Counted from the first letter of the stretch, positions 3,768-62,006 are shown. The stretch is 64,000 nucleotides of DNA from an uncultured Eubacteriales bacterium (GCA_948543815.1 CAOVHW010000001.1:9186-73185); one strand, 5' to 3'. Notes: generated by a model from the letters alone, not told the origin. A program made the numbers and translations.

Positions 3768-3822
3768 ATGTACGCACCTCATCTGCTAAAATATATGCAG
3801 ATAAATTTTCGTTAATGACAAG

Positions 3823-4671
3823 GTGAATAAGTTGATTGAATTTACTAAAATGCATGGCCTCGGTAATGATTACATCTATATCGATTGCACTAAAAAATAT
3901 TCTGTAAAAAATCTTATTGCCACTGCTAAAAATTTAAGTAATCGTCATTTTGGTATCGGTAGTGATGGTTTGATTTTAATTTCGCCAAGTAATATCGCTG
4001 ACTTTAAAATGCAAATAATAAATTCTGATGGCAGTCAGGCACAAATGTGTGGGAATGGAATAAGATGTGTCGGAAAATTTATTTTTGATAATAAACTTTC
4101 CGATAAAACAAATTTAACAATTGAAACTCTAGCCGGTATAAAAAAATTACAACTCAATCTCAAAAATAATTCTGTCGATACCGTTACAGTTGATATGGGT
4201 AAACCAATATTTACGCCCGAAAAAATTCCACTACTCGCAAAAAATAATTCCATTGAAATAAATTCAATGAAATTTACTTGTCTCTCACTCGGTAATCCTC
4301 ACGCCGTTACAATCGTTAATGATATAAATAGAATTGATGTAGAAAAAATTGGCCCGCTCATAGAAAATGACAAACATTTCCCTCAAAAAATTAATGTAGA
4401 ATTCATAGAAATCGTTAATAAAAATCATGTTAAAATGAAAGTTTGGGAACGTGGTAGCGGTTTGACTTTAGCTTGTGGAACTGGCGCATGTGCATGCTGT
4501 GTCGCCGCAATAGAAAATAATTTGGCAAATAAAAATGAAAATATAAAAGTTGAATTGCCCGGCGGTTTCTTGACAATAAATTGGCACGAAAATATTTTTA
4601 TGACCGGACCTGCAACTACCGTTTTTACTGGAAAAATTGATGAAAAACTTTTTGGCTTGGAGGAATTTTAA
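3823..4671 (+). CDS. dapF: Diaminopimelate epimerase
   Basis: It has the FTKMHGLGNDYIYID N-terminal motif, the catalytic Cys motifs (MCGNGIRC, ACGTGACA), and is ~280 aa long. The TTG at 3832 has better AAGGTG spacing and may be the true start. Confidence 0.92.
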   Translation: MNKLIEFTKMHGLGNDYIYIDCTKKYSVKNLIATAKNLSNRHFGIGSDGLILISPSNIADFKMQIINSDGSQAQMCGNGIRCVGKFIFDNKLSDKTNLTIETLAGIKKLQLNLKNNSVDTVTVDMGKPIFTPEKIPLLAKNNSIEINSMKFTCLSLGNPHAVTIVNDINRIDVEKIGPLIENDKHFPQKINVEFIEIVNKNHVKMKVWERGSGLTLACGTGACACCVAAIENNLANKNENIKVELPGGFLTINWHENIFMTGPATTVFTGKIDEKLFGLEEF

Positions 4672-5844
4672 ATGTATATTAATGAAAATTTTTTGGCACT
4701 CCAAAATAATTATTTGTTTACTGAAATTGAAAAACGTGTCAATGAATACAAAAAAAATAATCCGGATAAACATGTTATAAAATTAGGCGTCGGCGACGTC
4801 TCTCAACCTATTCCGCAAATTATTGCTGACGAAATGAAAAAAGCGGCCGACGAAATGACAAATATCAAAACTTTTCATGGATACGGCCCTGAAACCGGCT
4901 ACGATTTCCTCAAACAAACTATCTTGGAAAATGAATATAAAAATATTTCACTGTCGGAAATTTTTATCTCTGACGGTATCGCTTCCGATATCGGCAATAT
5001 TCTCGATTTATTCTCTGAAAAAAATACTGTCGCAATAACTGACCCCGTTTACCCCGAATATCTCGACACAAATATCATGAATGGACGCCGAATAATTTTT
5101 TTGCCATGCGTTTCTGAAAATAATTTTGTTCCACCAATCCCTAATGAAAAAGTTGACTTGATTTATATCTGTAATCCTAATAATCCTACGGGCACCGCAA
5201 TAAATAAAAATGATTTGCAAAAATGGGTTGACTACGCCGTCGAAAATAATTCCGTAATTTTGTACGATGGTGCTTATGAAAAATTTATTTCGTCAGAAAA
5301 TATCCCACACTCTATTTATGAAATACCAAACGCAAAAAAATGTGCAATAGAATTCCGTAGCTTCTCAAAATCTGCAGGTTTTACTGGACTTCGCTGCTCT
5401 TATACAATCGTTCCAAATGAATTAGTTGAGCAAACAAAAAATATTTCACTAAATAAACTTTGGAATCGCCGACAATGTACAAAAACTAACGGCGTTTCGT
5501 ATATAATTCAACGCGCCGCACAAGCTGTTTATTCTCCTGAAGGCAAAAAAAATTGCGCCGCCAATATAAAATATTACATGGACAACGCAAAAATAATTTA
5601 TGACGGATTAAAAAAATCCGGATACGAAACTTACGGTGGTATTGATGCTCCATATATTTGGTTCAAAATCCCGGAAAAATTTTCATGTTGGGATTGGTTC
5701 GATTACTGGCTGAAAAATTTAGGAATCGTTGGTACTCCCGGTATCGGTTTCGGCAAAAATGGTCAAAAATATTTTCGCCTCTCAGCTTTTGGCAACCGAA
5801 ATGAAACTTTACAAGCAATGGATAGAATTTTAAATAAAAATTAA
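4672..5844 (+). CDS. dapL: LL-diaminopimelate aminotransferase (DapL-type)
   Basis: 390 aa fold-type I aminotransferase. The N-terminus (INENFLALQNNYLFTEIEKRV...IKLGVGDV) and the SFSKSAGFTGLRC PLP-lysine motif are typical of DapL. It is translationally coupled to dapF. Confidence 0.88.
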   Translation: MYINENFLALQNNYLFTEIEKRVNEYKKNNPDKHVIKLGVGDVSQPIPQIIADEMKKAADEMTNIKTFHGYGPETGYDFLKQTILENEYKNISLSEIFISDGIASDIGNILDLFSEKNTVAITDPVYPEYLDTNIMNGRRIIFLPCVSENNFVPPIPNEKVDLIYICNPNNPTGTAINKNDLQKWVDYAVENNSVILYDGAYEKFISSENIPHSIYEIPNAKKCAIEFRSFSKSAGFTGLRCSYTIVPNELVEQTKNISLNKLWNRRQCTKTNGVSYIIQRAAQAVYSPEGKKNCAANIKYYMDNAKIIYDGLKKSGYETYGGIDAPYIWFKIPEKFSCWDWFDYWLKNLGIVGTPGIGFGKNGQKYFRLSAFGNRNETLQAMDRILNKN

Positions 5845-5967
5845 TTTTTACCAGAAAATTTTATATTAGTAAGTGTTTTTAAATTGTAACGTAAAAAAAT
5901 TTGCAATTTATAAAAAATTATTATACAATAATTTTGTAAGTATTTATCAAAAAAAGAGGTGATAAAA

Positions 5968-6351
5968 ATGGAAGAAATGGCAAATTCATTAAAATCATCA
6001 TGGAGTAATTGGGTAAACAAAATAAAATCACAAGAATCAGAAATACAAGATGAAATTAAACAACACAAGAGCATTATAGAAATCATATGCCGTATATTTT
6101 GGTTTTCCCATATAATAATACCTCTCCAAAAATCTTCTATAGAAAGCCAAAGAAATAGATTAAATAAAATTCAAACTCCAGTACTAAAGGACGTTGCATT
6201 AAATATCTTGCAGGATTCTGAATTGGCACATGAAGAAACAGAAGAATATTTGCAAGCTTTAAAAAGTCGATTAGCAGAACTACAAAATCAACAAACAACA
6301 GATAACGTTCCTACTTTAGATACAAATCAAAATCTTGAACAAGAAATGTAA
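5968..6351 (+). CDS. Hypothetical protein (127 aa), helical, with a Q/E-rich C-terminus
   Basis: ORF with an AGAGGTGA RBS 5 nt upstream of the ATG at 5968; the track's GTG at 5959 lies inside the RBS. It is followed by a terminator hairpin. I recognise no family. Confidence 0.6.
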   Translation: MEEMANSLKSSWSNWVNKIKSQESEIQDEIKQHKSIIEIICRIFWFSHIIIPLQKSSIESQRNRLNKIQTPVLKDVALNILQDSELAHEETEEYLQALKSRLAELQNQQTTDNVPTLDTNQNLEQEM

Positions 6352-6368
6352 TAAACATTTTTACAAAA

Positions 6369-6405
6369 AATCCGAACTTTCACTGATGAAATTCGGATTT
6401 TTTTA
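6369..6405. terminator. Bidirectional rho-independent terminator between convergent genes
   Basis: The stem aatccgaa / ttcggatt is flanked by an A-run and a T-run. Confidence 0.7.
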
Positions 6406-6422
6406 TTTGCAAAAAATAATTT

Positions 6423-7043
6423 TCATAATTCAATTGCATTAAATTTTTTAATGAAAAAATCACCGGTAAACAATAACAACAAAGAATTTATCACGCCGCC
6501 AATTAAATCAAAAATATTCCAAACGCAACCAAAATTTTTTACGTAACTAAAAATTATGACGCTTATAATTCCAAAATATATTCTATCAATTTTATTCACT
6601 CTAAAAGATTTTCCACACGCTCCCGAAAATATCCCGACGACAGAATATGCAATGATTTGCAGCAAAAAATTTTCTTTGACAAAAAAACTTGTAACAATTC
6701 CCGCTATTAATCCAGCAAAAAATGCTGATGGAAATCCAAAAATCATTCCCGCCAAAATAATTATAAATAAATCCAAGTACAAAAATGAAATTGGTGAAAA
6801 AATAATTTTACTTAATGCGGCCAATGCTGCTAAAAGTGAAATTAAAATAAATTTGTCAAGTTTACATCCATTTACTAAAAAATTTCGGAATAAAATTAAA
6901 ATCAAAGTAACAACAGCCGCAATAAATCCTTCGATACGTACAGCGTCGTCAGGTTCCTTACCCGCTATCGAAAACATAAATGCCGCTACTAAAATTAAAA
7001 TGAATGTAAAATAATCTTTTCGCATTTTTAAAAATTCCCCCAT
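6423..7043 (-). CDS. Hypothetical polytopic membrane protein (about 6 TM; size and shape resemble an ECF S-component, family not recognised)
   Basis: 206 aa, almost entirely hydrophobic helices. The overlapping + strand ORF 6556-7014 is its mirror artefact. Confidence 0.7.
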   Translation of the reverse strand: MGEFLKMRKDYFTFILILVAAFMFSIAGKEPDDAVRIEGFIAAVVTLILILFRNFLVNGCKLDKFILISLLAALAALSKIIFSPISFLYLDLFIIILAGMIFGFPSAFFAGLIAGIVTSFFVKENFLLQIIAYSVVGIFSGACGKSFRVNKIDRIYFGIISVIIFSYVKNFGCVWNIFDLIGGVINSLLLLFTGDFFIKKFNAIEL

Positions 7044-7105
7044 ATTTTCATATCCTATCGCATTCTAAAATATAAATAAGTATAACACAAAAGCAGGGAT
7101 TTAAA

Positions 7106-8167
7106 ATGCAGAAACTTGTGGAATTTTTTCGGCTTAGTGCCTATGGCACAATTATTTCTTTCATTATGTTAATTACTATTTTTATTACTAAAAATTATAT
7201 GCCGTACGAATTATTTTTACGTGAGGCACTTCCATTTTATAAAACTGATTTCAAATTTCTATTCACTACTAAAAATTATAATTTAACTAATGAAAATGAA
7301 AATGATTTTAATAATAACTGTGAAGTTTTTAATAAAATTGAACCATCTGATTTGATTAACGATATTGAATATAAAAAAGTTACTAAACCAATTTTCGATA
7401 GTGAGCAACTTTGTGATTTAACTTTCTTGAAAAGTAAATTTTATTCCGTTGATAAAAAAACTGATTTGACATTAAATGATTTTGACGTAAAAAAATTCTT
7501 AGCCGCCGATACTTCTATTAATAATTCTACCGATAAGGTTAAAATTTTAATTTTCCATACTCATTCTACTGAAATGTATAAAGATAGTGATAATAATAAT
7601 ATGTATGATGGAGTTGTCGGGCTCGGCGCTAAATTAGCTCAAATCTTAAATGATAAGTATAAAATTAAAACGCTACATCATACTAAAAGATATGATATCG
7701 TAAATTCGAAACCGGATAAACGTGGCGCATACGAACGTATGGAAACTGACGTTATCAAAATCATTAAGGCTAATCCATCTATTGAAGTCGCTATTGATAT
7801 CCATCGTGATGGCGTCGCTGAAAATATCCATCTCGTTGAAAATATAAATGGTAAACCTACCGCTAAAATTATGTTCGTCGATGGACTTTGTAAATTATTC
7901 CGTAATAATATTTTGACTCCAATAAATAATTTACCAAATCCATACCTAGATACGAATTTAGCTTTAAGTTTTAAAATGCAACTAAAATGTTACGAACTAT
8001 ATCCTAATCTCGCTCGTAAAATTTATATCAATGCCTACCGCTATAGTTTAAATATGTTGCCAAAATCTTTATTAGTTGAAGTTGGCGCTCAAACAAATAC
8101 TAAACAGGAAGCATTAAATGCCATCGAACCTTTAGCTGATGTATTAGCAAAAGTTTTATTGGAATAA
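7106..8167 (+). CDS. spoIIP: Stage II sporulation protein P (engulfment amidase/endopeptidase)
   Basis: It has an N-terminal TM anchor, an ILIFHTHSTEMY motif, a DIHRDG motif and LLVEVGAQTNT, all typical of SpoIIP. Confidence 0.85.
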   Translation: MQKLVEFFRLSAYGTIISFIMLITIFITKNYMPYELFLREALPFYKTDFKFLFTTKNYNLTNENENDFNNNCEVFNKIEPSDLINDIEYKKVTKPIFDSEQLCDLTFLKSKFYSVDKKTDLTLNDFDVKKFLAADTSINNSTDKVKILIFHTHSTEMYKDSDNNNMYDGVVGLGAKLAQILNDKYKIKTLHHTKRYDIVNSKPDKRGAYERMETDVIKIIKANPSIEVAIDIHRDGVAENIHLVENINGKPTAKIMFVDGLCKLFRNNILTPINNLPNPYLDTNLALSFKMQLKCYELYPNLARKIYINAYRYSLNMLPKSLLVEVGAQTNTKQEALNAIEPLADVLAKVLLE

Positions 8168-8196
8168 TAAAAAAATTCGCAGATGCGAATTTTTTT

Positions 8197-8868
8197 TTAA
8201 TAATTTTCTCGGTACTCATCCATATACTTTTTTAATAATTTTGCTGTAGTCGGTGGTGTGTATGAAATTGCATTCGCTCCAGCCTTAATCGTTTTCAATA
8301 TACTTTCATCCGTTTTTCCGCCCGTCGCTATTATCGGAATATCTTTAAATTTTTTACGTATCTGTCCAACAATTTTTGCTGTATTCTCACCGCCACTTAC
8401 ATTTAAAATATCTGCGCCGGCTTTTAATTTTTGTTCAATATCTACATTTTCTGACACAATCGTAATAATTACCGGAATATCCACAACACTTTTTACCTGC
8501 GAAATCGTTTGTAGTGACGTCGGTGCGTTTAAAACAACTGCTAGTGCACCTTGAAATTCTGCGTGCAATGCAACATTTTTTGACCGTAAACCTTCTGTAA
8601 TTCCTCCGCCAACTCCACAAAATACTGGCATATCTGCTATCGATATAATTGCTTGCGTAATTGTAGGATGCGGTGTAAATGGATAAACTGCAATAATTGC
8701 ATCGGCATCTGAATTTTTTATAATTGCTACATCGGTTGAAAATAAAATTGAATAAATAGTCTTTCCAATAATCGTTATGCCACTTGCTTTCTCTCGTATT
8801 ATCGCCGGCACTTTTACTAAATTTTTATGCAAATTAGTTGTATATTGCGGACTAGTTTTCTTGACCAT
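8197..8868 (-). CDS. Uncharacterised alpha/beta (TIM-barrel-like) protein
   Basis: 223 aa with an alternating beta-alpha pattern and Gly-rich phosphate-binding-like loops (VFCGVGGG, IIATGGK). The exact family is not recognised. Confidence 0.65.
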   Translation of the reverse strand: MVKKTSPQYTTNLHKNLVKVPAIIREKASGITIIGKTIYSILFSTDVAIIKNSDADAIIAVYPFTPHPTITQAIISIADMPVFCGVGGGITEGLRSKNVALHAEFQGALAVVLNAPTSLQTISQVKSVVDIPVIITIVSENVDIEQKLKAGADILNVSGGENTAKIVGQIRKKFKDIPIIATGGKTDESILKTIKAGANAISYTPPTTAKLLKKYMDEYRENY

Positions 8869-9013: not shown

Positions 9014-9163
9014 TTTCCCTCACTTAATATACAATATTTAATTTATACTGTCAAGTTCATAGCTTTGCAAATAAAATTTATTTGTATTGAAAAATATCTT
9101 TGAATTTATCTTGTAATTATTTTATAATAAAATTATGAATTTTTATTTGTGAGGTGAAAAAAC

Positions 9164-18092: not shown

Positions 18093-19403
18093 ATGCACAA
18101 TCCTCAATCTCTTTGGAATGATACTTTAAAATTATTAGAGAATAATTTTACTGAAGTCGTTTTTAATACTTGGATAAAAAAATTAGTACCAATTAAAATC
18201 GAAAATAATTGCCTAATCCTTAAAACTGACCAGAATTTTTTTAAAACAACTATCGAACAACGCTACCTAAATACAATTATAAATTGCCTGCAATCCGTCT
18301 CAAATTCAACTATTACCGCTAAAATAGTAATTGATAGTGAATTATCTAACGAGCCAAAAATAAAATCGTCTAAAAAAAATAATTTAAATCCTAAATATAT
18401 TTTTGAAACATTTGTGCGCGGTAAAAGTAATGAATTGGCATATGCAGCAGCATTAGCAATTGCTGAAGCGCCCGGCCAAACAACTTATAATCCTTTGTTT
18501 CTATACGGAGGAGTTGGGCTTGGCAAAACACATCTTATGCATTCAATCGGTAACTATATTTTGAATCAATCGCCGAATTCAAAAGTTCTTTACGCATCAA
18601 CTGAAACTTTTACAAATGAATTGATAAATTCTATTCGCGAACGTAAAAATCAAGAATTCCGAAATAAATACCGTGATATTGATGTTTTGCTCATCGACGA
18701 TATTCAATTTTTATCAGATAAAGAAGGAACGCAAGAGGAATTTTTCCACACGTTCAACACTTTGTACGATGCAAATAAACAAATTGTAATTTCGAGTGAC
18801 CAACCGCCAAAAGAAATTAAAACTTTGGAAAATCGTCTGCGCTCACGATTTGGTTGCGGTTTAATAGTTGATATAACGCCGCCAGATTTTGAAACTCGTA
18901 GTGCAATTGTTGAAAAAAAAGCGGAACTCGACCATATAAAAATTTCTCCTGAAGTTACGAAATTTATTGCAAAAAATATCGCATCAAATATTCGTGAACT
19001 TGAAGGCGCATTGAATAAAGTTGCGGCATATTCTAAATTAACTAACACACAAATTACATTGGAATTAGCTGAAAATGCACTGCGAGATTTAATCAGTGAA
19101 GCAGCGCGCCCAGATATAACTGTTGAGTTCATACAGGAAATTGTGGCAAATTATTTTAACATAACAGTCGAAGATATGCGTGGGAAAAAGCGTACGCAAA
19201 ATATAGCTTATCCGCGTCAAATTGCAATGTATCTTTCACGTAAATTAATTGATACATCTCTGCCGAAAATTGGTGAAAAATTTGGCGGACGCGACCACTC
19301 AACCGTTATTCATGGTTGTGAAAAAATTTTTAAGGAACTCGAAAACGATATTGAATTAAAAAAAACAATTGAAGACCTAGAAAAAAAGATAAAATGTGAA
19401 TAA
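18093..19403 (+). CDS. dnaA: Chromosomal replication initiator protein DnaA
   Basis: 436 aa with Walker A GGVGLGKTHL, DVLLIDDIQF, sensor motifs, and the C-terminal DNA-binding domain (IAYPRQIAMYLSR...GGRDHSTVIH). Confidence 0.97.
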   Translation: MHNPQSLWNDTLKLLENNFTEVVFNTWIKKLVPIKIENNCLILKTDQNFFKTTIEQRYLNTIINCLQSVSNSTITAKIVIDSELSNEPKIKSSKKNNLNPKYIFETFVRGKSNELAYAAALAIAEAPGQTTYNPLFLYGGVGLGKTHLMHSIGNYILNQSPNSKVLYASTETFTNELINSIRERKNQEFRNKYRDIDVLLIDDIQFLSDKEGTQEEFFHTFNTLYDANKQIVISSDQPPKEIKTLENRLRSRFGCGLIVDITPPDFETRSAIVEKKAELDHIKISPEVTKFIAKNIASNIRELEGALNKVAAYSKLTNTQITLELAENALRDLISEAARPDITVEFIQEIVANYFNITVEDMRGKKRTQNIAYPRQIAMYLSRKLIDTSLPKIGEKFGGRDHSTVIHGCEKIFKELENDIELKKTIEDLEKKIKCE

Positions 19404-24905: not shown

Positions 24906-25940
24906 TTAATGTTCTTGAGATCTTGGCATATTATTTAAATTAGGAATTGGAACAGGCTTTTGCGATTCAATAGCATTTAATTTGTCCAAAACTAACTTTT
25001 GTTTAAATTTCGGATAGCTATTAGCCAGATTTTTAAGGTATAAACGACAGGCTAAAATTTGGGCATCACTTAAATTATTAAACCGCTTAATATTTAATCC
25101 AAGAGATATTATATCAATTAACTCTCTAGTATCCATATCATTTATAATTGGCGGATTAAAAATATAGTCCAAATAAACTTTCTTATCATCTTCTGAATAA
25201 TTATTAGCCGGATCTTGTACATATGAAACACATTCTAAAAATTTGTCTTTGCTTAATTTAGCAAATGCACTCTTAGCAAAGAATATATCATAATCAATTA
25301 TTTCAAATAAAAGTTTAGGTTCCATAACATTAAAAACTTCTCGATTAATATTAATTAATTTAGGCACCATTATTAGCTTTTTTTCTGTTTCATTAGTTTG
25401 TACATATTTAATACAATCTAAAATTTTGTTTGCACTTAAAGCAGCTAACGTGGCTTCATTTAATAGACCACTTTCTACTATTTCAACTAAAGATTTAGCA
25501 TCTATATTATTTATAATTTGTGGATTAAGAGAGATTACTTTCTCTAAAAATTTTTTTCCTAAATTACTCCATTCCCCCGAATTTTGTATATAGGAAACGC
25601 ACTCTATAATTTTTTCGTTGCTTAATTCATTCAAGCTATCATTATTCAATAAGTCAAAATTAAGCAACATAATCAAATTGTCAGACGTTAGTCTATTTAT
25701 ACAACTCGGTTTACTATCGACTAAGTTGCTCAAGATAGTTATATCTCGTACCGGTCTCGCTCCCTTGTATCCTTGCGCAACTTCAAGGAGCTCTTGAAAT
25801 TTTTCATCATTTAAATCGACTAATGATTTAGTAGATAATGATTTATTATACAACATTTTATATAAACGTTTAGATTCCATATTATTTAAATCTTTAGACG
25901 CCGCATCATTATTTAATACAAAATTTCCATTTTCATTCAT
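24906..25940 (-). CDS. Locus B gene 4: soluble repeat protein (344 aa), 4-5 copies of a ~61 aa helical repeat; no TM hairpin
   Basis: Repeats start at LSNEKIIECVSYIQN, LSANKILDCIKYVQT, LSKDKFLECVSYVQD and LSDAQILACRLYLKN. The same repeat occurs in the 833 aa and ~1456 aa proteins. GGAGA RBS. Confidence 0.85.
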   Translation of the reverse strand: MNENGNFVLNNDAASKDLNNMESKRLYKMLYNKSLSTKSLVDLNDEKFQELLEVAQGYKGARPVRDITILSNLVDSKPSCINRLTSDNLIMLLNFDLLNNDSLNELSNEKIIECVSYIQNSGEWSNLGKKFLEKVISLNPQIINNIDAKSLVEIVESGLLNEATLAALSANKILDCIKYVQTNETEKKLIMVPKLININREVFNVMEPKLLFEIIDYDIFFAKSAFAKLSKDKFLECVSYVQDPANNYSEDDKKVYLDYIFNPPIINDMDTRELIDIISLGLNIKRFNNLSDAQILACRLYLKNLANSYPKFKQKLVLDKLNAIESQKPVPIPNLNNMPRSQEH

Positions 25941-25996
25941 AGTTAACCATCTCCTATTAATATAATTTATAATAAAGCATTTATACCAATAATTCT

Positions 25997-26025
25997 ATTA
26001 TATTACATGAAAATTAAAAAGTCAA
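25997..26025 (-). promoter_or_regulatory. Near-consensus sigma-A promoter of locus B gene 4 (TTGACT-17-TATAAT)
   Basis: The - strand reads TTGACTttttaattttcatgtaaTATAAT. The -10 plus downstream TATAATAGAATTAT box is shared with the other two locus B transcription units. Confidence 0.7.
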
Positions 26026-26149
26026 CCCATAAATCAAAAAAAATTTATATATAAAAAAATCCACTCATATAGATTTTTTTAACTGCAGCTTTTTCAAAAA
26101 GATAACACTCACAAAATAACTATAACATTTGGTAAAAAATAAGTTCAAA

Positions 26150-26180
26150 TAAAAAAAATTCCCTTTGCAATAAGGGAACT
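26150..26180 (-). terminator. Rho-independent terminator after the 833 aa gene
   Basis: On the - strand, gttccctt-attgca-aagggaa is followed by a T8 run. Confidence 0.75.
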
Positions 26181-26194
26181 TTTTTCGAAAAAAT

Positions 26195-28696
26195 TTATAT
26201 TACCTCTTGAATCATTTCATTATTTTGCATCGGTGGAATTCCATTTTGTTGATTATTTTCATGATTTTGAATTTGCATATTTTGTTGTTCTTGTACTTTT
26301 TGAACATCATTTAAATTTGGAACTAGATCATGATTTTCAACAATTACTCTATTTGATTTTTGTTTTTTATTTTTATGATTAAAAGCAAAAGTAGAAAAAC
26401 TAGCCAAACCAGTGATAGATAAACCTACTGCTACTCCCAATCCAATTCCAAAAGGTATAACGGATGCAACAAAAGTTAAAATCGCAATAGTAACTGCAGC
26501 TACTATCAAAGTAATACCTGTTATAGTAAAAGTCAAATTACAAGCTTTGTCAAAAGATTTCTCTTCATTTTGTTCAGAAATAGAAATATTTTCTTTAAAA
26601 GATTCAATTCGCATTTCTAAGGCTTCAGGATCGTTTCTAACTCCCCGCCTAATATTATCGAAAAAAGGTTTATATCTATTTCTTAATAAAATTTTTTTAC
26701 GAACACAAAAACCTTTTGCAATAAAACTAACTGCACTAGCCGCAAAGAAACTTACTAGTGAACTCAAACCAATAGCTAAAGGTATAAAAGGTACAGCAAA
26801 AGTTAAAACGGTAATAGCAATAGAAATTAATGTAAAAGCGGTACTCATTATAGTAAATGCTAAGTTATAAGATCTATTTAAAAAATTTTCTTTCAAAATT
26901 TCTAATATACATTTAGGAATTTTTTTCTTTTTTCTACTTGCATAATTTAAAAAAATATCATACCCATATTTTACATAATCCAAAAAGCTGTCACAGATAT
27001 CAGTTATCAATGAATAATTACTAAAATAATGATATTTTTCTTCCGCAGCTGACGCTAACAATAATTTAAAATATAACTTTGTCTTTTCTATATTTTGTGC
27101 ATCATCACCTATTTCACAACTTATAATAAAATCAAACATTTTTTTAAGCGTTAAATTTTCAAGATAATGTACTCTTGATAAAAAAACAAAAAACATTTTT
27201 TGCAAGATTTCAAAATTTGCACCTTTTTTCTCTATAAAAATATCAAGTAAATATTTAAACTCTTCTTCTTGATATAAATGATTAAGATTTTCATAGCTCA
27301 TATTCGGCAAATTTTCATAAATTATTTCTTTAGTAACATCATTTTTATTTTCAAATAAATACTCAAAAAATTCACTTCTCTCTGATGCTTTTTTCGCCAA
27401 GAGTTTTATATCACTTCTTTCAAAATTTATACAAATAAATTCAAAAAGAGGTCCCAACCAAACTCGATTATAACGATAATAATCTTCACCATGAATATAA
27501 TAACTTTTCTCATTAATAAAAGAAAAATCAATATAATCTTTATATATAATCATTTTTTCAAAAAATTTATGATTAAAAATATTCCGGCATGCGTCTAAAC
27601 TATGACGTTCAATATAAGCAAAAATTGAATGATTTTTTATTGAAAACAAATTAAAAAGCTCTTTTACAAAATCTCCTGGCAAATTATCATTATTTTTAAA
27701 ATACTCAATTAGCTCAATAGCTTTTCCGACATTAAACCAAGCAAAACATTTAATATCAATAAATTGATACCACTCAATAATTTTTCTACACGTTACCTTA
27801 TCTATAATCGATGGTCTAATAATTAATTTTTTAAAAGTTTCTTGTTTCACTTCTCCAGAATAATTATTATTCGGATTTTGTACGTATGCCATACAAGCTA
27901 AAATTTTTTCGTCATTTAACCACGACAGTTGCTCACTGCTAAAATAATTTATATAGTTAATTATTTTTTTTGGTTCCCATTGATTTAACTCATCCTTTGA
28001 AACATTAACAGAAGTCCGACCAGTTTCATATTTATAAGCTTTAACTTCATCCGGCCAATTTTCATAAATTTCTTCAAGGTCAGGAGATAAAATTAATTCT
28101 TCACCTACAACAATTTTATAAGCTGTCTTAAAATCAACTAAAATTACAGAGCCTAATTTTTCATCACCTAAACTCAAAAGTTGTTTTTGAGGCTTTAATA
28201 AATTACTCTGTGTAACGTGAAAATTTTCCACATTTTGTCTTGCTTCTTCGGAATATAAAAAATCATACAAATTCTTTATTATAGTTTTTATTTCTCCATA
28301 ATCGTTTTGATTAACAAAATCTTGACAAATAAATTTTATGGAAAAATCTAATATTTGCTCCGGATTTGATACTTTTTTATTTTTAGCAAGCAATGCAAAT
28401 TCAGTTTTTGCGAATTCTTCAGGCATTTTTTGAAAAATTTCTCTTAAATCTATAATTTTTATAATAATAGCTTTTCTGGCTTGAGGAAATAAATTTAAAC
28501 AATGTATCATACATGCAAAAAAAATACATTGAAAATAATGAACATGAAAAAAAGAATCGCTTAACATATCATTATTTACGATTATGTCTTTATATATTTC
28601 TGGTTGAAAATATCTTTTTTCTTTATTAATCTCGTCGAGAAACCAATATCTTATATCAGAAACATAAGCTTCTTTACCATCTTGCAGAGAGTTCAT
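26195..28696 (-). CDS. Locus B gene 3: paralogue of residues ~260-end of the giant protein, with two bilobed TM hairpins (833 aa as an ATG-initiated ORF)
   Basis: It aligns with the giant protein (DSFFHVHYFQCIFFACMIHCL vs DSFATIHYFQCIVTACIMHFL; DEKILACMAYVQNPNNNYS vs DKILQCIFYVLKPERNYT). There is no SD in front of ATG 28696. The frame stays open upstream to 28771, overlapping the end of the 239 aa ORF in the -1 frame. Confidence 0.8.
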   Translation of the reverse strand: MNSLQDGKEAYVSDIRYWFLDEINKEKRYFQPEIYKDIIVNNDMLSDSFFHVHYFQCIFFACMIHCLNLFPQARKAIIIKIIDLREIFQKMPEEFAKTEFALLAKNKKVSNPEQILDFSIKFICQDFVNQNDYGEIKTIIKNLYDFLYSEEARQNVENFHVTQSNLLKPQKQLLSLGDEKLGSVILVDFKTAYKIVVGEELILSPDLEEIYENWPDEVKAYKYETGRTSVNVSKDELNQWEPKKIINYINYFSSEQLSWLNDEKILACMAYVQNPNNNYSGEVKQETFKKLIIRPSIIDKVTCRKIIEWYQFIDIKCFAWFNVGKAIELIEYFKNNDNLPGDFVKELFNLFSIKNHSIFAYIERHSLDACRNIFNHKFFEKMIIYKDYIDFSFINEKSYYIHGEDYYRYNRVWLGPLFEFICINFERSDIKLLAKKASERSEFFEYLFENKNDVTKEIIYENLPNMSYENLNHLYQEEEFKYLLDIFIEKKGANFEILQKMFFVFLSRVHYLENLTLKKMFDFIISCEIGDDAQNIEKTKLYFKLLLASAAEEKYHYFSNYSLITDICDSFLDYVKYGYDIFLNYASRKKKKIPKCILEILKENFLNRSYNLAFTIMSTAFTLISIAITVLTFAVPFIPLAIGLSSLVSFFAASAVSFIAKGFCVRKKILLRNRYKPFFDNIRRGVRNDPEALEMRIESFKENISISEQNEEKSFDKACNLTFTITGITLIVAAVTIAILTFVASVIPFGIGLGVAVGLSITGLASFSTFAFNHKNKKQKSNRVIVENHDLVPNLNDVQKVQEQQNMQIQNHENNQQNGIPPMQNNEMIQEVI
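26381..26536 (-). other. Second bilobed hydrophobic hairpin of the 833 aa protein
   Basis: LTFTITGITLIVAAVTIAILTFVASVIPFGIGLGVAVGLSITGLASFSTFAF is followed by NHKNKKQK and a Q/N-rich tail. Confidence 0.7.
26720..26863 (-). other. First bilobed hydrophobic hairpin of the 833 aa protein
   Basis: LAFTIMSTAFTLISIAITVLTFAVPFIPLAIGLSSLVSFFAASAVSFI is followed by a basic patch (AKGFCVRKKILLRNRYK). Confidence 0.7.
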
Positions 28697-28740
28697 GGAA
28701 TCTTCTGAAAATTTTTTGGCAGCATTTACTATACATCTTT

Positions 28741-29454
28741 TTAAACTTTCTTTTTTATGTAAGGAAATTTTTCACTCAAAGCATTTAATATTTTGTCATC
28801 AATTTTAAGTTTAAATGTTTTATTTTCAATAAAAATAAATTCATTCAATAAATCCAAATTTAAAAAATCAATATCATTTTCTGTAATCGTTTCATTGCAT
28901 TGTGTTAAAAATGTCTGCGTATTCTTTGCAATATTTATTAATAAATCACCTTTAATTTTATTCAATAAAACTGGTAATCCTGCATTTAGCGGAAGATTAT
29001 AAAATTGATATTGCTTTTCATTTTCATAAAATTCAATTCCATCCCAAAACATTTTGAAAAGATTATTTTCTGAATTTCTATTAACACTATAATAATCACT
29101 ATCACCATAACCAACAGCATTTATATCAAATGTCTCACATTGTAAAAAATCCGTAGGTCTTATTTTTTTCCTGCCAATAACATTACCTAATTTATCAAGA
29201 AATTCTCTCAAAACACTTTTAGAAATTCCTGAAATTTCAGATACTTCATCAATTTGATTGCTAATATAAATATGGTAAATTTCTAACGCTCTATATGTTT
29301 GACATGTATTTAAAACTGAAACAAAAAGTCCAGTAGTTATTTGAACTACAGAAGTTACTGCAACTGTCAACATTGGCTTCCCCGAAGAGTCAATAATATA
29401 TTTTGATGTAATTGTCTCACGATTAATTATACTTTCATCTATATTTTCGTTCAC
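28741..29454 (-). CDS. Locus B gene 2: paralogue of the N-terminal ~250 aa of the giant protein (237-239 aa)
   Basis: Shared motifs are VSVLNTCQT vs VSNLNTCQT, LREFLDKLG vs LRECLEKLG, and MFWDGIEF vs NFWEFLNK. AGGAGG RBS. The GTG at 29454 has better spacing than the TTG at 29460. Confidence 0.8.
   Translation of the reverse strand: MNENIDESIINRETITSKYIIDSSGKPMLTVAVTSVVQITTGLFVSVLNTCQTYRALEIYHIYISNQIDEVSEISGISKSVLREFLDKLGNVIGRKKIRPTDFLQCETFDINAVGYGDSDYYSVNRNSENNLFKMFWDGIEFYENEKQYQFYNLPLNAGLPVLLNKIKGDLLINIAKNTQTFLTQCNETITENDIDFLNLDLLNEFIFIENKTFKLKIDDKILNALSEKFPYIKKKV
28750..28756 (-). other. A_AAA_AAG heptamer in the zero frame of the 239 aa ORF; candidate -1 frameshift or slippage site joining it to the 833 aa ORF
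   Basis: The - strand reads tac atA AAA AAG aaa gtt taa. The -1 frame reads ..AAA AAA gaa agt tta aaa aga ... tcc ATG aac, which is the 833 aa frame. Confidence 0.45.
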
Positions 29455-29534
29455 AATCAAATCCTCCTTTACAACGTAATCTATTGTATATAATTTTATT
29501 ATACTAAAAATTTCATTAAAATAAAAGAAATTTA

Positions 29535-32500
29535 TTACATTTCTTTTTGACTTAAACTATTTTCAGATTCCGGTCTATCTGTTTGTGCAAAATTTTTGAT
29601 ACGTTCTTTAATTGGTTTGCGCCAACCATATAAAACTTTTTCAGTTTTTGTATAAGTTTCTGGATCTCTTTTCATTAATTCATCATTTTTTCCTTTATCA
29701 AAAAATTTTGAAGCTAAACCAGTGCTTACTGCTCCAATAACAAATAATGCTACAGCTATACCTAATCCAATTCCAAAAGATAAAAAACCAAGTAAAGCTA
29801 AAGGCAATAGTGTAATTGAAGCTGAAACTGCAGCAATTCCTGAACTTATAAACGCTATATTACGTTTTTTGTGCAATGATTTTTCTTCTGTGTTTTCATT
29901 TTCCATTGCTACTGTTTCATTTTTACCTTCAATTTTTACATTGCTTTTATCTTCAGCTTTTCGCTTTTTCTCTTCTTCCTCATCTTTTGCTTCCATTTTT
30001 ACTTCTGATTTTACAGTTTTTTCAGTAACTTCAGATTTTTTCTTTGTTTCTATTTTTTCATCTAAATTTTTTAATAACAAATTAACATTATTTCCAAATT
30101 TTTCTATTAACGTTCTAATTTCTTCTTCTGATATAAACGACCTATATCTAACAAATAATGAATTTAATACGCTTTCTTGATTAGGCAACTTTAACAATAT
30201 TTCATTAAATCTTTTATCACTAACTGCTCGTATAACAGCACAGCTATTACTTTCAAAAGCATCTATTAAGATTTCATCAGATAAATCATCAACATATTTA
30301 TTAAAGTAGCTTATTATAATATTTAAATTATCAGGTTTAGAATTAACCAAATTTATAAAACTATCTTTACTAATCAAATTTTTTATATTTTCATTTTTAA
30401 ATTTGCATAATTTTAATAAATTATCATTATTAACTTTACTATTAATATAAGCAATCAAATTTGCTTTAAAGTTTTCATTTTGTAGCATATCAACTATTAA
30501 ATTTTCATATTCATTCAATATTTCTATAAAATCATCATCATTTGAAATATTATTAGGGAAAATAGACATAAGCTTATTTTTATAATTTTCATCTAAAATT
30601 GATAATTTCAACATTGCTTCTACTGGTAATTTTGTAAATTCTGAAGATATTACTTCATTTATTGCCTTAACAAAACTATTTTCACTTGAGTTGTCTTTTA
30701 CATATTCTATCGTTTTAAGTACATAATTACTATCCAGTAAAAAATTTTTTAATAAAGTTTTTGTTTTTGTTTTTTCTGCATCTTTGTCAAAATCAAAATA
30801 AAGTTTTGTTGCAAAAATTCTTGACTCAAAATCAAGATTATAAAAAGATTTGTTCTCAAATAATTTTTTTTCTATAAGAATTAAAAAAAATGATTTTATG
30901 TTCTCTGGCATATTATCAACTGAATAATTTTTTTGGCCAAATCTCATTAATAGTGAAAATTTACTGTCCTTTATCTTCGGAGCTATAACATTTAACAGCT
31001 CTTCATCTTTTACCATTAAATCTAACAAAATTTCATTGTTATTTATCTCATTTATAAAATCTGGACTATTTTTTAATATTTTCTGCAAAATTTTAATACC
31101 GTTATCATCTTTTTTACCATATACGAAATTCACTAAATCATTAAAGTGCATAAATTTTCCATCAATTAAATCAAAAAAATAATCAAACCTAGCATAAATT
31201 TGTTCTATTAGTACATAATTTATTGCTTGCGGTACAATTTTTAATATATATTTGGGCACCTTTGATACTTTCTCAGCAATATATTTTAAGAAATCAACAT
31301 TTTTTGCACTATTTTGGCATAAATCATTAAAATATAATTTTAAACGTTCTTGTTTTTCAAAATCATTCTCATTTATTTTGCAATATATTATAAGGTCAAA
31401 AATTTGTTTCGGTTGCATAGTTTTAAACAAATCTCTATTAAAATAAGCAGTAGCAAATACTTTTTTTAACCATTCGAATCCTATACTTTTTTTATCTAAA
31501 AAATAATTTATTAAGTCTGTAAATTTTCCTACGTTTAAATATTTTAATATTCTAGCTCCAATATAATTATAATTAGTTTCAATTTCTTCCGGCGTAAAAT
31601 ATAAAATGAATTCAGGATAATATCTTATTTTTTTCATTAAAATTGATTTTGCTAAACCAGTATCTTGATGAGTTTTATTTTCTCTTATAAACGTAATTAA
31701 TTCTCTAACTTTTTCATTCGGAAATTTTGAAATAGAACCTTCATCAACGTCTCTAAAAAACTCTAAAATATTTTTTATTTGAGCACAATTTAAAACTTTA
31801 TCACAATATAAATTCAAAAAAGGACCTCTTACTAAGCTTTGAACATTATCATTTTCTATATTACGACCAAGATAATTCAAAAAATTATTTAATAAAATAT
31901 CATTATCACCGCCACCAATCATTGATCTAAAACAATCATAACGACGCTCAAAAAATTTATCAAATTCTATAACATTCTGAAATTCTACTATTTTTGCAAA
32001 AAATTCTTCATCTCTTATAAAATTTTGCTTTACTGTATTATTATTTGTCAACAATTTAAAAACTTTTTCAGAAAGGCTAATTGGAACATTATTTCCATGT
32101 TTAATATAATTTACTAAATTAATAAGTTTATTATTATCTATATTGCAATGATTAATATCAATGTAGTCAAATAATTCAACAATTTGCTGCGCTGTTAAAG
32201 AATTAATTATATTAGAGTTAAGATTAACAAAAACTCTAAGCAAATCATTTTTTCTTTCAGCAGTATAATTTCTTTCTGGCTTTAGCACATAAAAAATACA
32301 TTGCAAAATTTTATCTGTTTTCAATGAATTTAATTGTGCAGATCTTAATAACGCAATATGCTCAACTAAATCTTCAACTGATACATTATTTATTTCTTGT
32401 CCTCTTAAACGATCTATTGTAACTTCATAATCAAATAATTCTGGATTAGAAGTATCAAAATTTGTGTAAGCATCCATAACTTCTTGTGATAAATTTAATT

Positions 32501-33905
32501 TTCTACCTGTAACAACTTCATATAATATTGGTAAAGGAACTTTTACTTCACCATTTTTCTCTATAAATAAATCTTTTGAATTTAAAAAAGTAAATTGCGT
32601 AGTATGATAATTAGTACCTGATACTACTTGTCGTGCTTCATTTGAAAATAGATCAGCATATATATTTGTTGTTGTATTTAATATTTTTTCTAAAACATTT
32701 TCTGAAATATCATCGCCACAAAATTTTTTTATAATAAACTTTACTTTTTCAGCAGGCGATAAAATTAAAGCATGTTCTGCAACTTTGAAATCATCTGAAG
32801 CTTTGAAATCATCTAATGTCATTTTTTCAAAATCACTTCTAACTTTTATAATTCTATCAATTATATTCTTTCTTGTATTAACATCTGCATCCACACTTAA
32901 AAAATGCATAATACACGCCGTGACAATACATTGAAAATAATGAATCGTAGCAAAAGAATCATTTAAAAGACCATTTTGGCTTATTTCTATTGGTTTATAA
33001 ATTTCTTCTGAAAAAAATTTATCTTTATTAAAACTATCTACAAGCGAACTAGATATCAAGTCTATATAATCTTCTATTTCTCTGCAATAATATACAAAAG
33101 CAGATACCGCGTCTTTCGTTTTATTGTTTTTAAGATGTTGCAAAATTTTTTGTGGACTAATTCGATGCGAAAGATTTTCACATAACTTATCATATATAAG
33201 TTGGCCTGTTTCATTTAATTCACCTTCCGCATCATAAATTGTAAATTCATCATCGTCATTTTTACTACCTTTACATTTTTCAATAAAAACATCTTGTTTT
33301 AAAAATTCAAAATCTGTAACTTCATAAGGTTTTTCACCTTTATTTAAAAATTCCCAAAAATTTTTTGCTAAATTTACTGTTTCTGGTTCATCCTTATCAT
33401 GTAATATGGTTTTTAAGCTATATCCTGCACTTTCACTAGAATTATCGCCCCAAATACTCATCTCATATCCAGTGTCATTAGTAAATAACCATAAAAAATT
33501 TATTTCATCGTCTCGAAGGACATCCACAAAATCTTTATCACCAAATCCATTATAATTCATGTATCTAACTGCACATTCTTTCCCCAATTTTTCTAAACAT
33601 TCTCTTAATAAAATCATCGGATTTTTTCTGTCTCTATTAAATTGACTTATGAAATAATTTAAATCGTTTTCTGAGATATCTGTTTGCCTTAAAGCATCAA
33701 TAATTCTATCTCTATTTACATTAAAAGAGTTAATACCTCTATCTTTCGCAGCATTTGTTTGGCATGTATTTAAATTTGAAACAGAATTATCATCATCTAT
33801 TGGTGTTACTGAAGTTAATGGTAAAAAATATAATGGAATTTCCCCATTTTTTCCACCTTTATAAATATCTTTATGACTAAAATGAAACTGCACTCCTCGA
33901 TTCAT
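29535..33905 (-). CDS. Locus B gene 1: giant (~1456 aa) helical-repeat protein with an acidic/lysine-rich spacer and a C-terminal bilobed TM hairpin
   Basis: The ORF is uninterrupted. The AAGGAG RBS is 8 nt from the ATG at 33905; the track's GTG at 33914 lies inside the RBS. There is no signal peptide. The hairpin is at nt 29709-29858. Confidence 0.9.
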   Translation of the reverse strand: MNRGVQFHFSHKDIYKGGKNGEIPLYFLPLTSVTPIDDDNSVSNLNTCQTNAAKDRGINSFNVNRDRIIDALRQTDISENDLNYFISQFNRDRKNPMILLRECLEKLGKECAVRYMNYNGFGDKDFVDVLRDDEINFLWLFTNDTGYEMSIWGDNSSESAGYSLKTILHDKDEPETVNLAKNFWEFLNKGEKPYEVTDFEFLKQDVFIEKCKGSKNDDDEFTIYDAEGELNETGQLIYDKLCENLSHRISPQKILQHLKNNKTKDAVSAFVYYCREIEDYIDLISSSLVDSFNKDKFFSEEIYKPIEISQNGLLNDSFATIHYFQCIVTACIMHFLSVDADVNTRKNIIDRIIKVRSDFEKMTLDDFKASDDFKVAEHALILSPAEKVKFIIKKFCGDDISENVLEKILNTTTNIYADLFSNEARQVVSGTNYHTTQFTFLNSKDLFIEKNGEVKVPLPILYEVVTGRKLNLSQEVMDAYTNFDTSNPELFDYEVTIDRLRGQEINNVSVEDLVEHIALLRSAQLNSLKTDKILQCIFYVLKPERNYTAERKNDLLRVFVNLNSNIINSLTAQQIVELFDYIDINHCNIDNNKLINLVNYIKHGNNVPISLSEKVFKLLTNNNTVKQNFIRDEEFFAKIVEFQNVIEFDKFFERRYDCFRSMIGGGDNDILLNNFLNYLGRNIENDNVQSLVRGPFLNLYCDKVLNCAQIKNILEFFRDVDEGSISKFPNEKVRELITFIRENKTHQDTGLAKSILMKKIRYYPEFILYFTPEEIETNYNYIGARILKYLNVGKFTDLINYFLDKKSIGFEWLKKVFATAYFNRDLFKTMQPKQIFDLIIYCKINENDFEKQERLKLYFNDLCQNSAKNVDFLKYIAEKVSKVPKYILKIVPQAINYVLIEQIYARFDYFFDLIDGKFMHFNDLVNFVYGKKDDNGIKILQKILKNSPDFINEINNNEILLDLMVKDEELLNVIAPKIKDSKFSLLMRFGQKNYSVDNMPENIKSFFLILIEKKLFENKSFYNLDFESRIFATKLYFDFDKDAEKTKTKTLLKNFLLDSNYVLKTIEYVKDNSSENSFVKAINEVISSEFTKLPVEAMLKLSILDENYKNKLMSIFPNNISNDDDFIEILNEYENLIVDMLQNENFKANLIAYINSKVNNDNLLKLCKFKNENIKNLISKDSFINLVNSKPDNLNIIISYFNKYVDDLSDEILIDAFESNSCAVIRAVSDKRFNEILLKLPNQESVLNSLFVRYRSFISEEEIRTLIEKFGNNVNLLLKNLDEKIETKKKSEVTEKTVKSEVKMEAKDEEEEKKRKAEDKSNVKIEGKNETVAMENENTEEKSLHKKRNIAFISSGIAAVSASITLLPLALLGFLSFGIGLGIAVALFVIGAVSTGLASKFFDKGKNDELMKRDPETYTKTEKVLYGWRKPIKERIKNFAQTDRPESENSLSQKEM
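29709..29858 (-). other. Bilobed hydrophobic hairpin of the giant protein
   Basis: IAFISSGIAAVSASITLLPLALLGFLSFGIGLGIAVALFVIGAVSTGLAS is preceded by an E/K-rich low-complexity block and followed by a 57 aa charged tail. Confidence 0.7.
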
Positions 33906-34011
33906 AAAAATCACTCCTTCGATTTTTATTTACTTCAATAATTTTATTATACATTATTTCAACGAAAAATTAAATCATAAATTAAAAAAATTTTTGTATG
34001 TAAAAAAGGTA

Positions 34012-34041
34012 TAAAAAAAATCCACATATGTGGATTTTTTT
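34012..34041. terminator. Bidirectional terminator downstream of frr
   Basis: The perfect palindrome atccacatatgtggat lies between an A8 run and a T7 run. Confidence 0.8.
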
Positions 34042-34046
34042 AATAG

Positions 34047-61237: not shown

Positions 61238-61375
61238 CTTTTTACTTTTGTTTTTTAATCACAGTCTTTATTAATATAATAAATTTATTTTAGTAGATAA
61301 AGTAGTAGGGATTGTTGATATGTATAAAACATGTTAAAAATATCTCGTAATGATTAAGAAAGAAATTGAAAACAT

Positions 61376-61487
61376 TGTGGATAACTTCTTCAAAACTGTA
61401 ATTTAATCCACATTATACACAATTTATTTTTTTAATTGCAATTATGAACAATTTCTCAACACTTTCCTCTCTTTAATATGTTGATAA
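61376..61487. promoter_or_regulatory. Second DnaA-box cluster (upstream of lysS)
   Basis: The boxes are a perfect TGTGGATAA (61376-61384), TAATCCACA (61404-61412), TTATACACA (61413-61421) and TGTTGATAA (61479-61487). Confidence 0.5.
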
Positions 61488-61762: not shown

Positions 61763-62006
61763 TATAATTTCAAGCGTAAACTTTTTGGGAAAATATTATA
61801 AGCAGAAGAAGAAAGATTATAATTACAGAAATATTTTTTTTCATTTTGTAATACCTCCATGAAAAAATTTTATTGTACGGACTTCAGAATTTACTATCGA
61901 ATTTATGCAGAATTTTTTTACATTCTTCGCTATAACTTGTCATATTGAATTGATTTTTTTTATTCAGTTATAATAAACAATTAAAATGGTTAAGGAGGCT
62001 TTACTT

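Follow-up and report, generated by a model that had tools for sequence, protein, structure and literature searches.

What are the very large, AT-rich genes that lie between frr and prs in the genome of an uncultured Eubacteriales bacterium, and what might their products do? The region, here termed locus B, occupies positions 24906-33914 of a 64,000 nt stretch of that genome (GCA_948543815.1, CAOVHW010000001.1:9186-73185; this whole stretch is referred to below as the window) and comprises four minus-strand open reading frames (ORFs), at 29535-33914, 28741-29460, 26195-28696 and 24906-25940. To judge from the sequence, locus B is a lineage-specific, tandemly duplicated and very fast-evolving gene family, and its products are probably membrane proteins of the hairpin- or tail-anchored type, whose head and repeats belong to an orphan family. 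The functional reading that we tentatively favour, at a probability of roughly 40 %, is a composite one, in which the proteins are co-regulated, cytoplasm-facing, hairpin-anchored tethers engaged in evolutionary conflict.

Architecture of the locus B proteins

A first-pass annotation of the window, made by a model from the sequence, had placed the four ORFs in one paralogous family, and BLASTP bears this out. The 1459 and 833 amino acid (aa) products align over residues 281-896 and 9-603, respectively (E = 3e-44), and their hairpins align separately (E = 2e-10). As first described, the 239 aa ORF matches the N-terminal part of the largest protein only (residues 29-212 against 27-212, E = 1e-8), and the 833 aa ORF matches the downstream part, from residue 281, and carries two C-terminal hairpins, visible as hydropathy blocks. 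The 344 aa ORF gives multiple alignments to the repeats of the 1459 aa (E = 4e-8) and 833 aa (E = 2e-11) proteins and does consist of the repeat alone, in five units of about 60 aa; a Kyte-Doolittle scan found no hydrophobic block in it. The count of four holds for ORFs but not for genes, of which there are three (B1, B2 and B3), one of them broken by a frameshift. Their features are as follows.

29535-33905, minus strand: gene B1 (ORF), a giant protein with head, helical-repeat rod, E/K spacer, one hairpin and polar tail
32415-33914, minus strand: conserved head of about 500 aa, residues 1-500 of B1 (alignment of 11 family members)
33762-33770, minus strand: N49-T50-C51 of the LNTCQT motif, nearly invariant (10 of 10 aligned sequences covering the region)
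33531-33557, minus strand: motif N120-x2-G123-x2-D126-x-D128 (11-sequence alignment)
32931-32942, minus strand: HYFQ motif, residues 325-328, conserved but not invariant (H to Y in P0033, Q to M in P0027)
32595-32606, minus strand: H-x-T-Q motif, residues 437-440, opening a predicted beta strand (alignment and model; His shifted in P0027)
30045-32402, minus strand: helical-repeat rod of B1, about residues 505-1290, unit of about 60 aa (repeat hidden Markov model, HMM; DNA repeats D1, D5 and D12)
29865-30044, minus strand: E/K-rich charged spacer of B1, about residues 1291-1350 (read from the translation)
29700-29861, minus strand: bilobed hydrophobic hairpin of B1, residues 1352-1405 (Kyte-Doolittle; K/R on both flanks)
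29538-29699, minus strand: charged 54 aa C-terminal tail of B1 (translation)
28741-29460, minus strand: B2 5' fragment, 237/239 aa, N-lobe of the head (about residues 1-240 of the intact 1087 aa P0024)
28750-28756, minus strand: frameshift site A AAA AAG, where a -1 shift joins the 239 and 833 aa frames
26195-28696, minus strand: B2 3' fragment, 833 aa, with the remaining head, repeats, two hairpins and a Q/N-rich tail (ORF, BLASTP)
26702-26866, minus strand: B2 hairpin 1, residues 611-665 of the 833 aa (Kyte-Doolittle)
26396-26545, minus strand: B2 hairpin 2, residues 718-767 of the 833 aa (Kyte-Doolittle)
24906-25940, minus strand: gene B3, soluble 344 aa protein with five repeats of about 60 aa (ORF, BLASTP, repeat HMM)

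B1 encodes 1459 aa from the GTG at 33914 or 1456 aa from the ATG at 33905. The ATG is the start in the orthologues (1503 aa in strain L007, 1529 aa in L023) and in public gene calls, and the protein is called as 1456 aa in six public assemblies.

The head is the sole part common to distant relatives, at 20-31 % identity in the 11-sequence alignment. The first-pass annotation had distinguished a separate N-terminal domain and an HYFQC region; both exist, but they are not separate, and form one head of about 500 aa in the alignment and in the AlphaFold model. N120, D126, D128 and N185 are invariant across the 11 sequences, and N49, T50, C51 and G123 nearly so. An AlphaFold2 prediction from five sequences was unusable (predicted local distance difference test score, pLDDT, 39.5); addition of the distant homologues, giving the 11-sequence alignment, produced a usable model (pLDDT 83, predicted template modelling score 0.78), which combines a beta hairpin at the N-terminus with an alpha/beta part and an inserted helical region. 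The invariant residues and these scores together indicate that the head is real and folded. Foldseek found no neighbour for the model in the PDB (best E = 0.41, TM-score about 0.1) or in BFVD.

The helical repeats proposed in the first-pass annotation were recovered with an HMM seeded on the 344 aa protein. The unit of about 60 aa occurs five times in that protein (residues 35-332), at least six times in the 1459 aa protein and at least four times in the 833 aa protein, and periodicity in locus B at the DNA level is 183-186 nt. Long arrays of helical units recall ARM/HEAT-type proteins, but here the unit is about 60 aa and no ARM, HEAT or TPR match was found with Pfam in the window proteins.

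Hydrophobic hairpins are predicted at the positions first given for locus B, where the Kyte-Doolittle blocks match, and the count of seven hairpins in six proteins for the window is correct. The blocks are 46-56 aa long, with 0-2 charged residues, 32-50 % G/A/S, a central P/G turn and GxxxG/A-type spacing; for the three of locus B the figures are 53-54 aa, 0-1 charged residues and 32-43 % G/A/S. Both flanks are basic (2-6 K/R within 15 residues), and 54-86 polar residues follow the hairpin, or 170 in the case of the first hairpin of the 833 aa protein. A scan of the window for stretches of at least 36 residues without D, E, K, R, Q, N or H returned only the hairpin proteins and one segment of an NhaC transporter. 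The absence of signal peptides is likewise upheld. None of eight proteins has a signal-like N-terminus, the maximal 10-residue hydropathy in the first 40 residues being at most 1.4, compared with 2.95 for SpoIIP and 3.40 for a GH18 protein encoded in the same window; the one exception to that maximum is the 237 aa ORF (2.2), where the segment corresponds in the alignment to the N-terminal beta strands of the head model.

The frames of 239 and 833 aa are adjacent, differ by -1 and overlap in a zone containing A AAA AAG, a slippery heptamer of the form X XXY YYZ that is in phase at 28750-28756 (zero-frame codons AAA AAG). An orthologue from another strain (P0024 of L023, 1087 aa), to which the 833 aa fragment is 67 % identical, spans both without a break, which indicates that the two ORFs are one gene, B2, broken by a 1 nt frameshift. 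The broken sequence and its A-run are identical in five independent assemblies and therefore do not reflect an assembly error; phase variation at the A-run was rejected because of the same identity. The site resembles those of dnaX-type -1 frameshifting in that a -1 slip at the in-phase heptamer would restore the full frame, but differs in lacking a downstream structure and an upstream Shine-Dalgarno-like element. No stimulatory RNA structure was found 3' of A AAA AAG (minimum free energy -11 kcal/mol, z = 0.51 against shuffled sequences), and at the corresponding position the sequence of the intact orthologue is unrelated; programmed frameshifting of the dnaX type was rejected as the main explanation on these two grounds. 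We read the break as a fixed 1 nt frameshift, for which a 1 nt deletion in the A-run would be the simpler explanation. Low-level ribosomal slippage at the A-run is possible.

Variation between strains and distribution of the family

Five strains were compared in which GyrA, PyrH, Frr, Prs and NhaC are 96-99.5 % identical to those of the window. The number and content of genes in the frr-prs interval differ from one to the next.

L007: one gene (1503 aa)
L023: two genes (1529 and 1087 aa)
Window: 1456 aa, broken 237/833 aa pair, 344 aa
L010: divergent, frameshifted 845/358 aa variant, 32 % identity, without the HYFQC motifs
L009: fragmented copy (five pieces, 3365-8521)

The gene breaks in L010 (9600-9700) and L009 are not at slippery heptamers and may be real or assembly errors. 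In a more distant genome (L011, GyrA 85 % identity), there is no family member after frr.

Nei-Gojobori estimates of synonymous (dS) and non-synonymous (dN) divergence separate the locus from its surroundings.

B1 orthologues: dS 0.16-0.17, dN/dS 0.81-0.85
Broken paralogue (237/833 aa): dS 0.25-0.29, dN/dS 0.62-0.79
gyrA, pyrH, prs and nhaC: dS 0.08-0.29, dN/dS 0.01-0.13

The dN of B1 is about 0.14, against 0.002-0.02 for flanking genes. Since its dS equals that of the flanks, divergence time is equal, and constraint on the protein is almost absent or selection is positive. In sliding windows of 100 codons, dN/dS of B1 ranges from 0.3 to 3.1, with values above 1 in some stretches of the head, distal rod and spacer. 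Frames of 4.4-4.6 kb are nevertheless kept open in at least three strains at 22-26 % G+C, a base composition at which about 9 % of random codons (roughly 1 in 11) would be stops, and the hairpins are uncharged in all orthologues despite a local dN/dS of about 1. That 1456 codons stay open at this G+C content argues that the B1 ORF is maintained by selection rather than by chance, while its sequence is apparently free, or driven, to change. Synonymous divergence like that of the flanks, coupled with 7- to 70-fold higher amino acid divergence, makes the locus a clean natural case of localized diversification, and it could be of use in typing strains of this uncultured gut lineage.

The first-pass annotation recognized no described family, and profile, PDB and Foldseek (PDB and BFVD) searches agree in being negative. 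Nothing above cut-off was found in Pfam, NCBIfam, PHROGs or PADLOC for the window proteins and their distant homologues. PDB sequence and profile searches with the head, the head alignment, the 344 aa protein and the 430 aa family of locus A (described below) were empty. The sole PADLOC match, to LeoBC, is below threshold (E = 8e-6 to 8e-4) and falls in the hairpin/charged region, not in the head or repeats. Neither Pfam nor NCBIfam found NTPase or nuclease domains on the window or distant family proteins, or an LXG domain on any member, the head model being mixed alpha/beta and about 500 aa. As regards large clostridial toxins, no toxin chains were among the 50 best Foldseek/PDB matches listed, and there was no Pfam match.

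Relatives are few. A word-indexed search of 5.8 billion proteins gave three clusters, and a full HMMER scan of 1.84 billion representatives gave 14 family clusters. When the head alignment was used as a profile against the same 5.8 billion proteins, three close relatives only were recovered, and a genome scan with family peptide patterns found no relatives; the divergent variant of the species representative, L010, is without those motifs. The family is, on these searches, tiny and of very narrow phyletic range.

The full architecture (head, repeats, one C-terminal hairpin and polar tail) is found in P0027 (1441 aa) and P0028 (1671 aa). P0032, P0033 and P0034 are family members without a hairpin, and P0029 stops before the hairpin, which is carried by a downstream 255 aa fragment, pointing to a split gene (L036). 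L034 encodes two family members and an adjoining 870 aa repeat-only protein with faint precomputed Arm/HEAT_2 matches. In architecture, this neighbour echoes the arrangement of the 344 aa partner. The second member in L034, at 3472-6111, bears a hairpin. In both L034 (8001-13549) and L036 (8001-11202), a family member lies just upstream of gerM-comEC-holA. All family loci sit among housekeeping genes of low-G+C genomes, most with sporulation genes nearby. Further large orphans without a Pfam match adjoin these loci, at 6659-8977 in L032 (772 aa) and 15363-19196 in L025 (1277 aa), neither with a hairpin; another, of more than 2237 aa (incomplete) and also without a Pfam match, is near the family locus of L026 (16360-18479).

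Promoters and the relation to locus A

Each gene has its own near-consensus TTGxxx-17-TATAAT promoter, of the housekeeping type, together with a strong ribosome-binding site. The -10 element forms part of TATAATAAAATTAT, a motif that includes the palindrome ATAAT-AAA-ATTAT. With up to one mismatch allowed, the window has five TATAATAAAATTAT sites where 1.31 would be expected, and none of 100 shuffled sequences reached five. Four of the five sites are upstream of hairpin-family genes: B1, B2, the 344 aa gene, and a 430 aa gene of locus A (9164-14858). The positions are as follows.

33938-33951, minus strand: palindrome upstream of B1 (TATAATAAAATTAT scan)
29490-29503, minus strand: palindrome upstream of B2 (TATAATAAAATTAT scan)
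25989-26025, minus strand: B3 promoter TTGACT-17-TATAAT (11 of 12 matches), including TATAATAGAATTAT, a variant of the palindrome (motif scan)
9123-9136, plus strand: palindrome upstream of the 430 aa locus A gene (TATAATAAAATTAT scan)
61275-61288, plus strand: fifth palindrome, one mismatch, in the lysS-GH77 intergenic region, with no obvious gene following
34014-34041, minus strand: terminator-like hairpin 3' of frr, separating frr from B1 (repeat D11)
26053-26082, minus strand: copy of the terminator-like hairpin upstream of the 344 aa gene (repeat D11)
9123-10456, plus strand (gene 9164-10456): 430 aa locus A hairpin protein with palindrome (ORF, hydropathy)
10569-14858, plus strand: three paralogous locus A hairpin proteins of 363, 451 and 453 aa (TATAATAAAAATGTAATGTT-type promoters)

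The motif is also found in related genomes. A single occurrence of TATAATAAAATTAT is present in the 15-21 kb available for each of L007, L010, L023, L026 (encoding P0027), L032 and L036 (encoding P0029), always 30-50 nt before a family gene; L009 and L029 have two sites each, also upstream of variable orphan genes. Retention of this 14-mer where the proteins share about 25 % identity implies constraint. In front of P0028 (L025, about 4470-4600) stand a terminator-like hairpin and a T-rich leader almost identical to those of the frr-B1 intergenic region (33906-34046). Its upstream gene is different, so the gene seems to carry its upstream cassette with it. Sporulation-type promoters were considered and rejected, as those of the locus fit the housekeeping TTGACx-17-TATAAT instead.

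Loci A and B had been described as carrying the same hairpin anchor. The likeness holds for composition and architecture but not for sequence: a locus B hairpin HMM scored at best 10.6 bits against the locus A hairpins, with no detectable homology, and common descent of the hairpin sequences is not supported. A link between the loci, also suggested in the first-pass annotation, receives partial support, from the 14 nt palindrome shared with the 430 aa gene and from hypervariability between strains. Locus A encodes 445 and 242 aa proteins in L029, and 556 and 431 aa proteins in L032, in place of the four genes of the window, and orthologues of the 430 aa protein in these two strains keep TATAATAAAATTAT. 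The three other locus A genes do not fit; they have a related but distinct extension, TATAATAAAAATGTAATGTT, in promoters at 10569, 11880 and 13443.

In the 430 aa protein, the N-terminal domain is nearly invariant among orthologues and contains GGNCVFASI, FIDQYTMQAFC.MTG.NILVF and GNHCTPF, in that order, a pattern reminiscent of OTU proteases with their Cys and His boxes. An OTU identity was not confirmed by Pfam (E up to 10), PDB phmmer or profile searches. Matches below cut-off to SidA_fam (E = 4.9e-5, 22.3 bits against a cut-off of 60) and SidF (E = 0.014, 13.9 bits against 27.1) are confined to locus A hairpin regions (residues 216-317 of the product of 10622-11713; residues 316-428 of P0041), with none in locus B proteins, and may reflect composition. 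Two variable orphan proteins of sister strains (L029 6155-6526 and L032 3875-4783), dissimilar elsewhere, share a tail ...NVPPLE..SCLIA, which is a CaaX-like prenylation motif and unexpected in Clostridium. No CaaX ends were found in the window, where the counterpart ORF (5959-6351) ends ...NLEQEM.

Possible function and genomic setting

The 64 kb window encodes SpoIIIAE, SpoIIP, HydF and DnaA. GyrA is 99 % identical to that of a metagenome-assembled genome labelled 'uncultured Clostridia bacterium', the next relatives being at 85 % and 76 %. These relatives, with the sporulation and anaerobe genes (SpoIIIAE, SpoIIP and HydF), indicate that the host is an uncultured, spore-forming, anaerobic Clostridium, and so Gram-positive.

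In the favoured reading, the hairpin would insert into the bacterium's own membrane with both ends in the cytoplasm, a topology suggested by the basic flanks (positive-inside rule) and the lack of an export signal. The rod and E/K spacer would then keep the head, a putative enzyme or ligand-binding module, at some distance from the cytoplasmic side of the membrane, and the 344 aa repeat-only paralogue may bind the rods or compete with them. A common repressor could bind the palindrome and control a small regulon of hairpin proteins; we infer this because the same motif precedes an unrelated locus A hairpin protein and distant family members. The flank-like dS, near-unconstrained amino acid change, differences in copy number and frameshifted copies suggest ongoing conflict, most plausibly with membrane-acting phages or other invaders, rather than a housekeeping role. 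If they do face the cytoplasm, these would be unusual giant membrane tethers, anchored post-translationally in a Gram-positive cell, with a head fold that has no detectable relative among solved structures; they would raise the questions of how the hairpin is inserted and what so distant a head does. The conserved palindrome offers a testable handle on the regulon and its regulator.

Among the closest described arrangements is that of bacterial tail-anchored proteins, which have no N-terminal signal, a C-terminal anchor and a largely cytoplasmic bulk (PMC3087755). The locus B proteins likewise have no N-terminal signal and a hydrophobic anchor near the C-terminus, but the anchor is one or two two-helix hairpins rather than a single terminal helix, the polar tail is 54-86 aa rather than a few residues, and the proteins are five to ten times larger.

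Several observations weigh against the favoured reading. The topology is taken from the positive-inside rule alone. The searches gave no homology that would point to an activity of the head, in which Cys and Asp residues are conserved and the two His motifs vary. The palindrome overlaps a canonical -10 element in an AT-rich genome, and its copies in locus B may have been inherited with a duplicated upstream cassette that includes the terminator-like hairpin. A dN/dS near 0.8 also fits relaxed constraint, which is a live possibility, copies being frameshifted in the window, L009, L010 and L036. As for conflict with invaders, defence genes seldom have such strong promoters and ribosome-binding sites, the frr-prs slot in other strains holds family variants only and never known defence systems, and no secretion or defence genes are visible within the window.

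The proteins might instead be exported, and their hairpins anchored in a membrane other than the bacterium's own (of a eukaryotic host cell, vacuole or competitor), in the manner of chlamydial Inc proteins or vacuole-anchored Legionella effectors; the hairpins would be soluble until delivery, and the head and rod would then act in the target cytoplasm. The hallmark of Inc proteins is a bilobed hydrophobic domain of 40-60 residues, made of two transmembrane helices with a loop of fewer than 30 aa, and one or two such domains occur in otherwise hydrophilic, often helical proteins (PMC3048545). The 46-56 aa bilobed domains described here, in hydrophilic proteins of three unrelated families whose genes are clustered, lineage-restricted and fast-evolving, fit this hallmark. 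Among Inc proteins, too, many unrelated families share a type of anchor, and the genes are clustered, restricted to a lineage and quick to evolve. The Legionella Dot/Icm effectors of the SidA family and SidF likewise combine large soluble parts with a C-terminal anchor of two transmembrane helices, and export would accord with the sub-threshold SidA_fam (E = 4.9e-5) and SidF (E = 0.014) matches, the CaaX-like CLIA ends of two variable neighbouring genes in related strains, and the OTU-like Cys/His-box pattern, our own reading, in the 430 aa protein. Each of these has its counterpart, in that the Legionella matches are below cut-off and cover the transmembrane segments only, the soluble parts being dissimilar and a Dot/Icm system absent; the OTU profile and PDB searches were negative; and no CaaX end is found in the window. 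Inc proteins are secreted through a type III system by Chlamydiae, which are obligate intracellular bacteria, and show no sequence similarity to the proteins of locus B. In the latter the hairpins are close to the C-terminus and follow from more than 600 to more than 1300 residues. The host, a spore-forming Gram-positive Clostridium, disfavours a simple reading of the Inc type. The window contains no type III or IV translocation genes, and such bacteria are not known to have an effector-translocation system of either type. Export is accordingly an unlikely explanation, although if true it would mean a new effector class in the Firmicutes. Somewhat less probable is its most elaborate form, an independently evolved, co-regulated Inc-like arsenal of unrelated proteins in a Gram-positive, spore-forming gut bacterium, anchored in a eukaryotic host membrane by an unknown route, which would include the giant head-rod proteins, the OTU-like protease and the CaaX-tailed proteins of sister strains.

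A single-protein abortive-infection or pore-forming system, in which glycine-zipper-like hairpins are the killing module and oligomerize into pores once the head and rod have sensed the invader and set them free, is about as doubtful as export. The G/A/S content of the hairpins (32-50 %) with GxxxG/A-type spacing, the lack of a signal peptide, repeat arrays long enough for sensing, strain-variable content at a fixed chromosomal slot, rapid evolution and inactivated copies, as expected of costly genes, are all in keeping with it. Strong promoters and ribosome-binding sites would, however, be hazardous for such a protein, the same anchor type is found on three unrelated N-terminal families, PADLOC gave no significant match, no NTPase or nuclease domains were found, and the frr-prs slot never holds other defence systems. 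Spore coats typically hold orphan, low-complexity, fast-evolving proteins, and the locus B products could be made in the mother cell without signal peptides and attached to the outer membrane of the forespore, to be uncovered when the mother cell lyses; rapid diversification would then be explained. Sporulation genes are encoded in all genomes carrying the family, locus A adjoins spoIIP and the spoIIIA operon, and family members are beside gerM-comEC in two other organisms. A location on the spore surface or forespore membrane is nonetheless very unlikely, as the promoters (TTGACx-17-TATAAT) are of the housekeeping type rather than a sporulation sigma-factor consensus, and in a compact genome little weight attaches to sporulation genes as neighbours. 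Hardly to be expected, finally, are decaying or functionless ORFs drifting neutrally. The dN/dS of 0.6-0.85, the frameshifts in four genomes (the window, L009, L010 and L036) and the very narrow distribution would suit drift, but it would not account for frames of 4.4-4.6 kb open in at least three strains at 22-26 % G+C, head motifs invariant across genomes at 20-30 % identity, a confident fold prediction, hairpins that have remained free of charge where dN/dS is locally about 1, or a promoter motif kept in distant genomes.

Some features of the wider window may be added. In the lysS-GH77 intergenic region, at 61450-61860, a short element is present in four or more copies whose orientation alternates, seen as mini-ORFs starting MRLHKDFLVKV or MQ(A/T)HKDF; Tandem Repeats Finder returned nothing relevant there. 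The window has about 30 % G+C, and loci A (9164-14858) and B (24906-33914) are its most AT-rich parts, at 22-26 %. Both lie within about 15 kb of dnaA (18093-19403), flanking a block of conserved genes that includes those for a cation ATPase, DnaA, a GATase, a rubrerythrin and an SNF protein, together with nhaC and prs.

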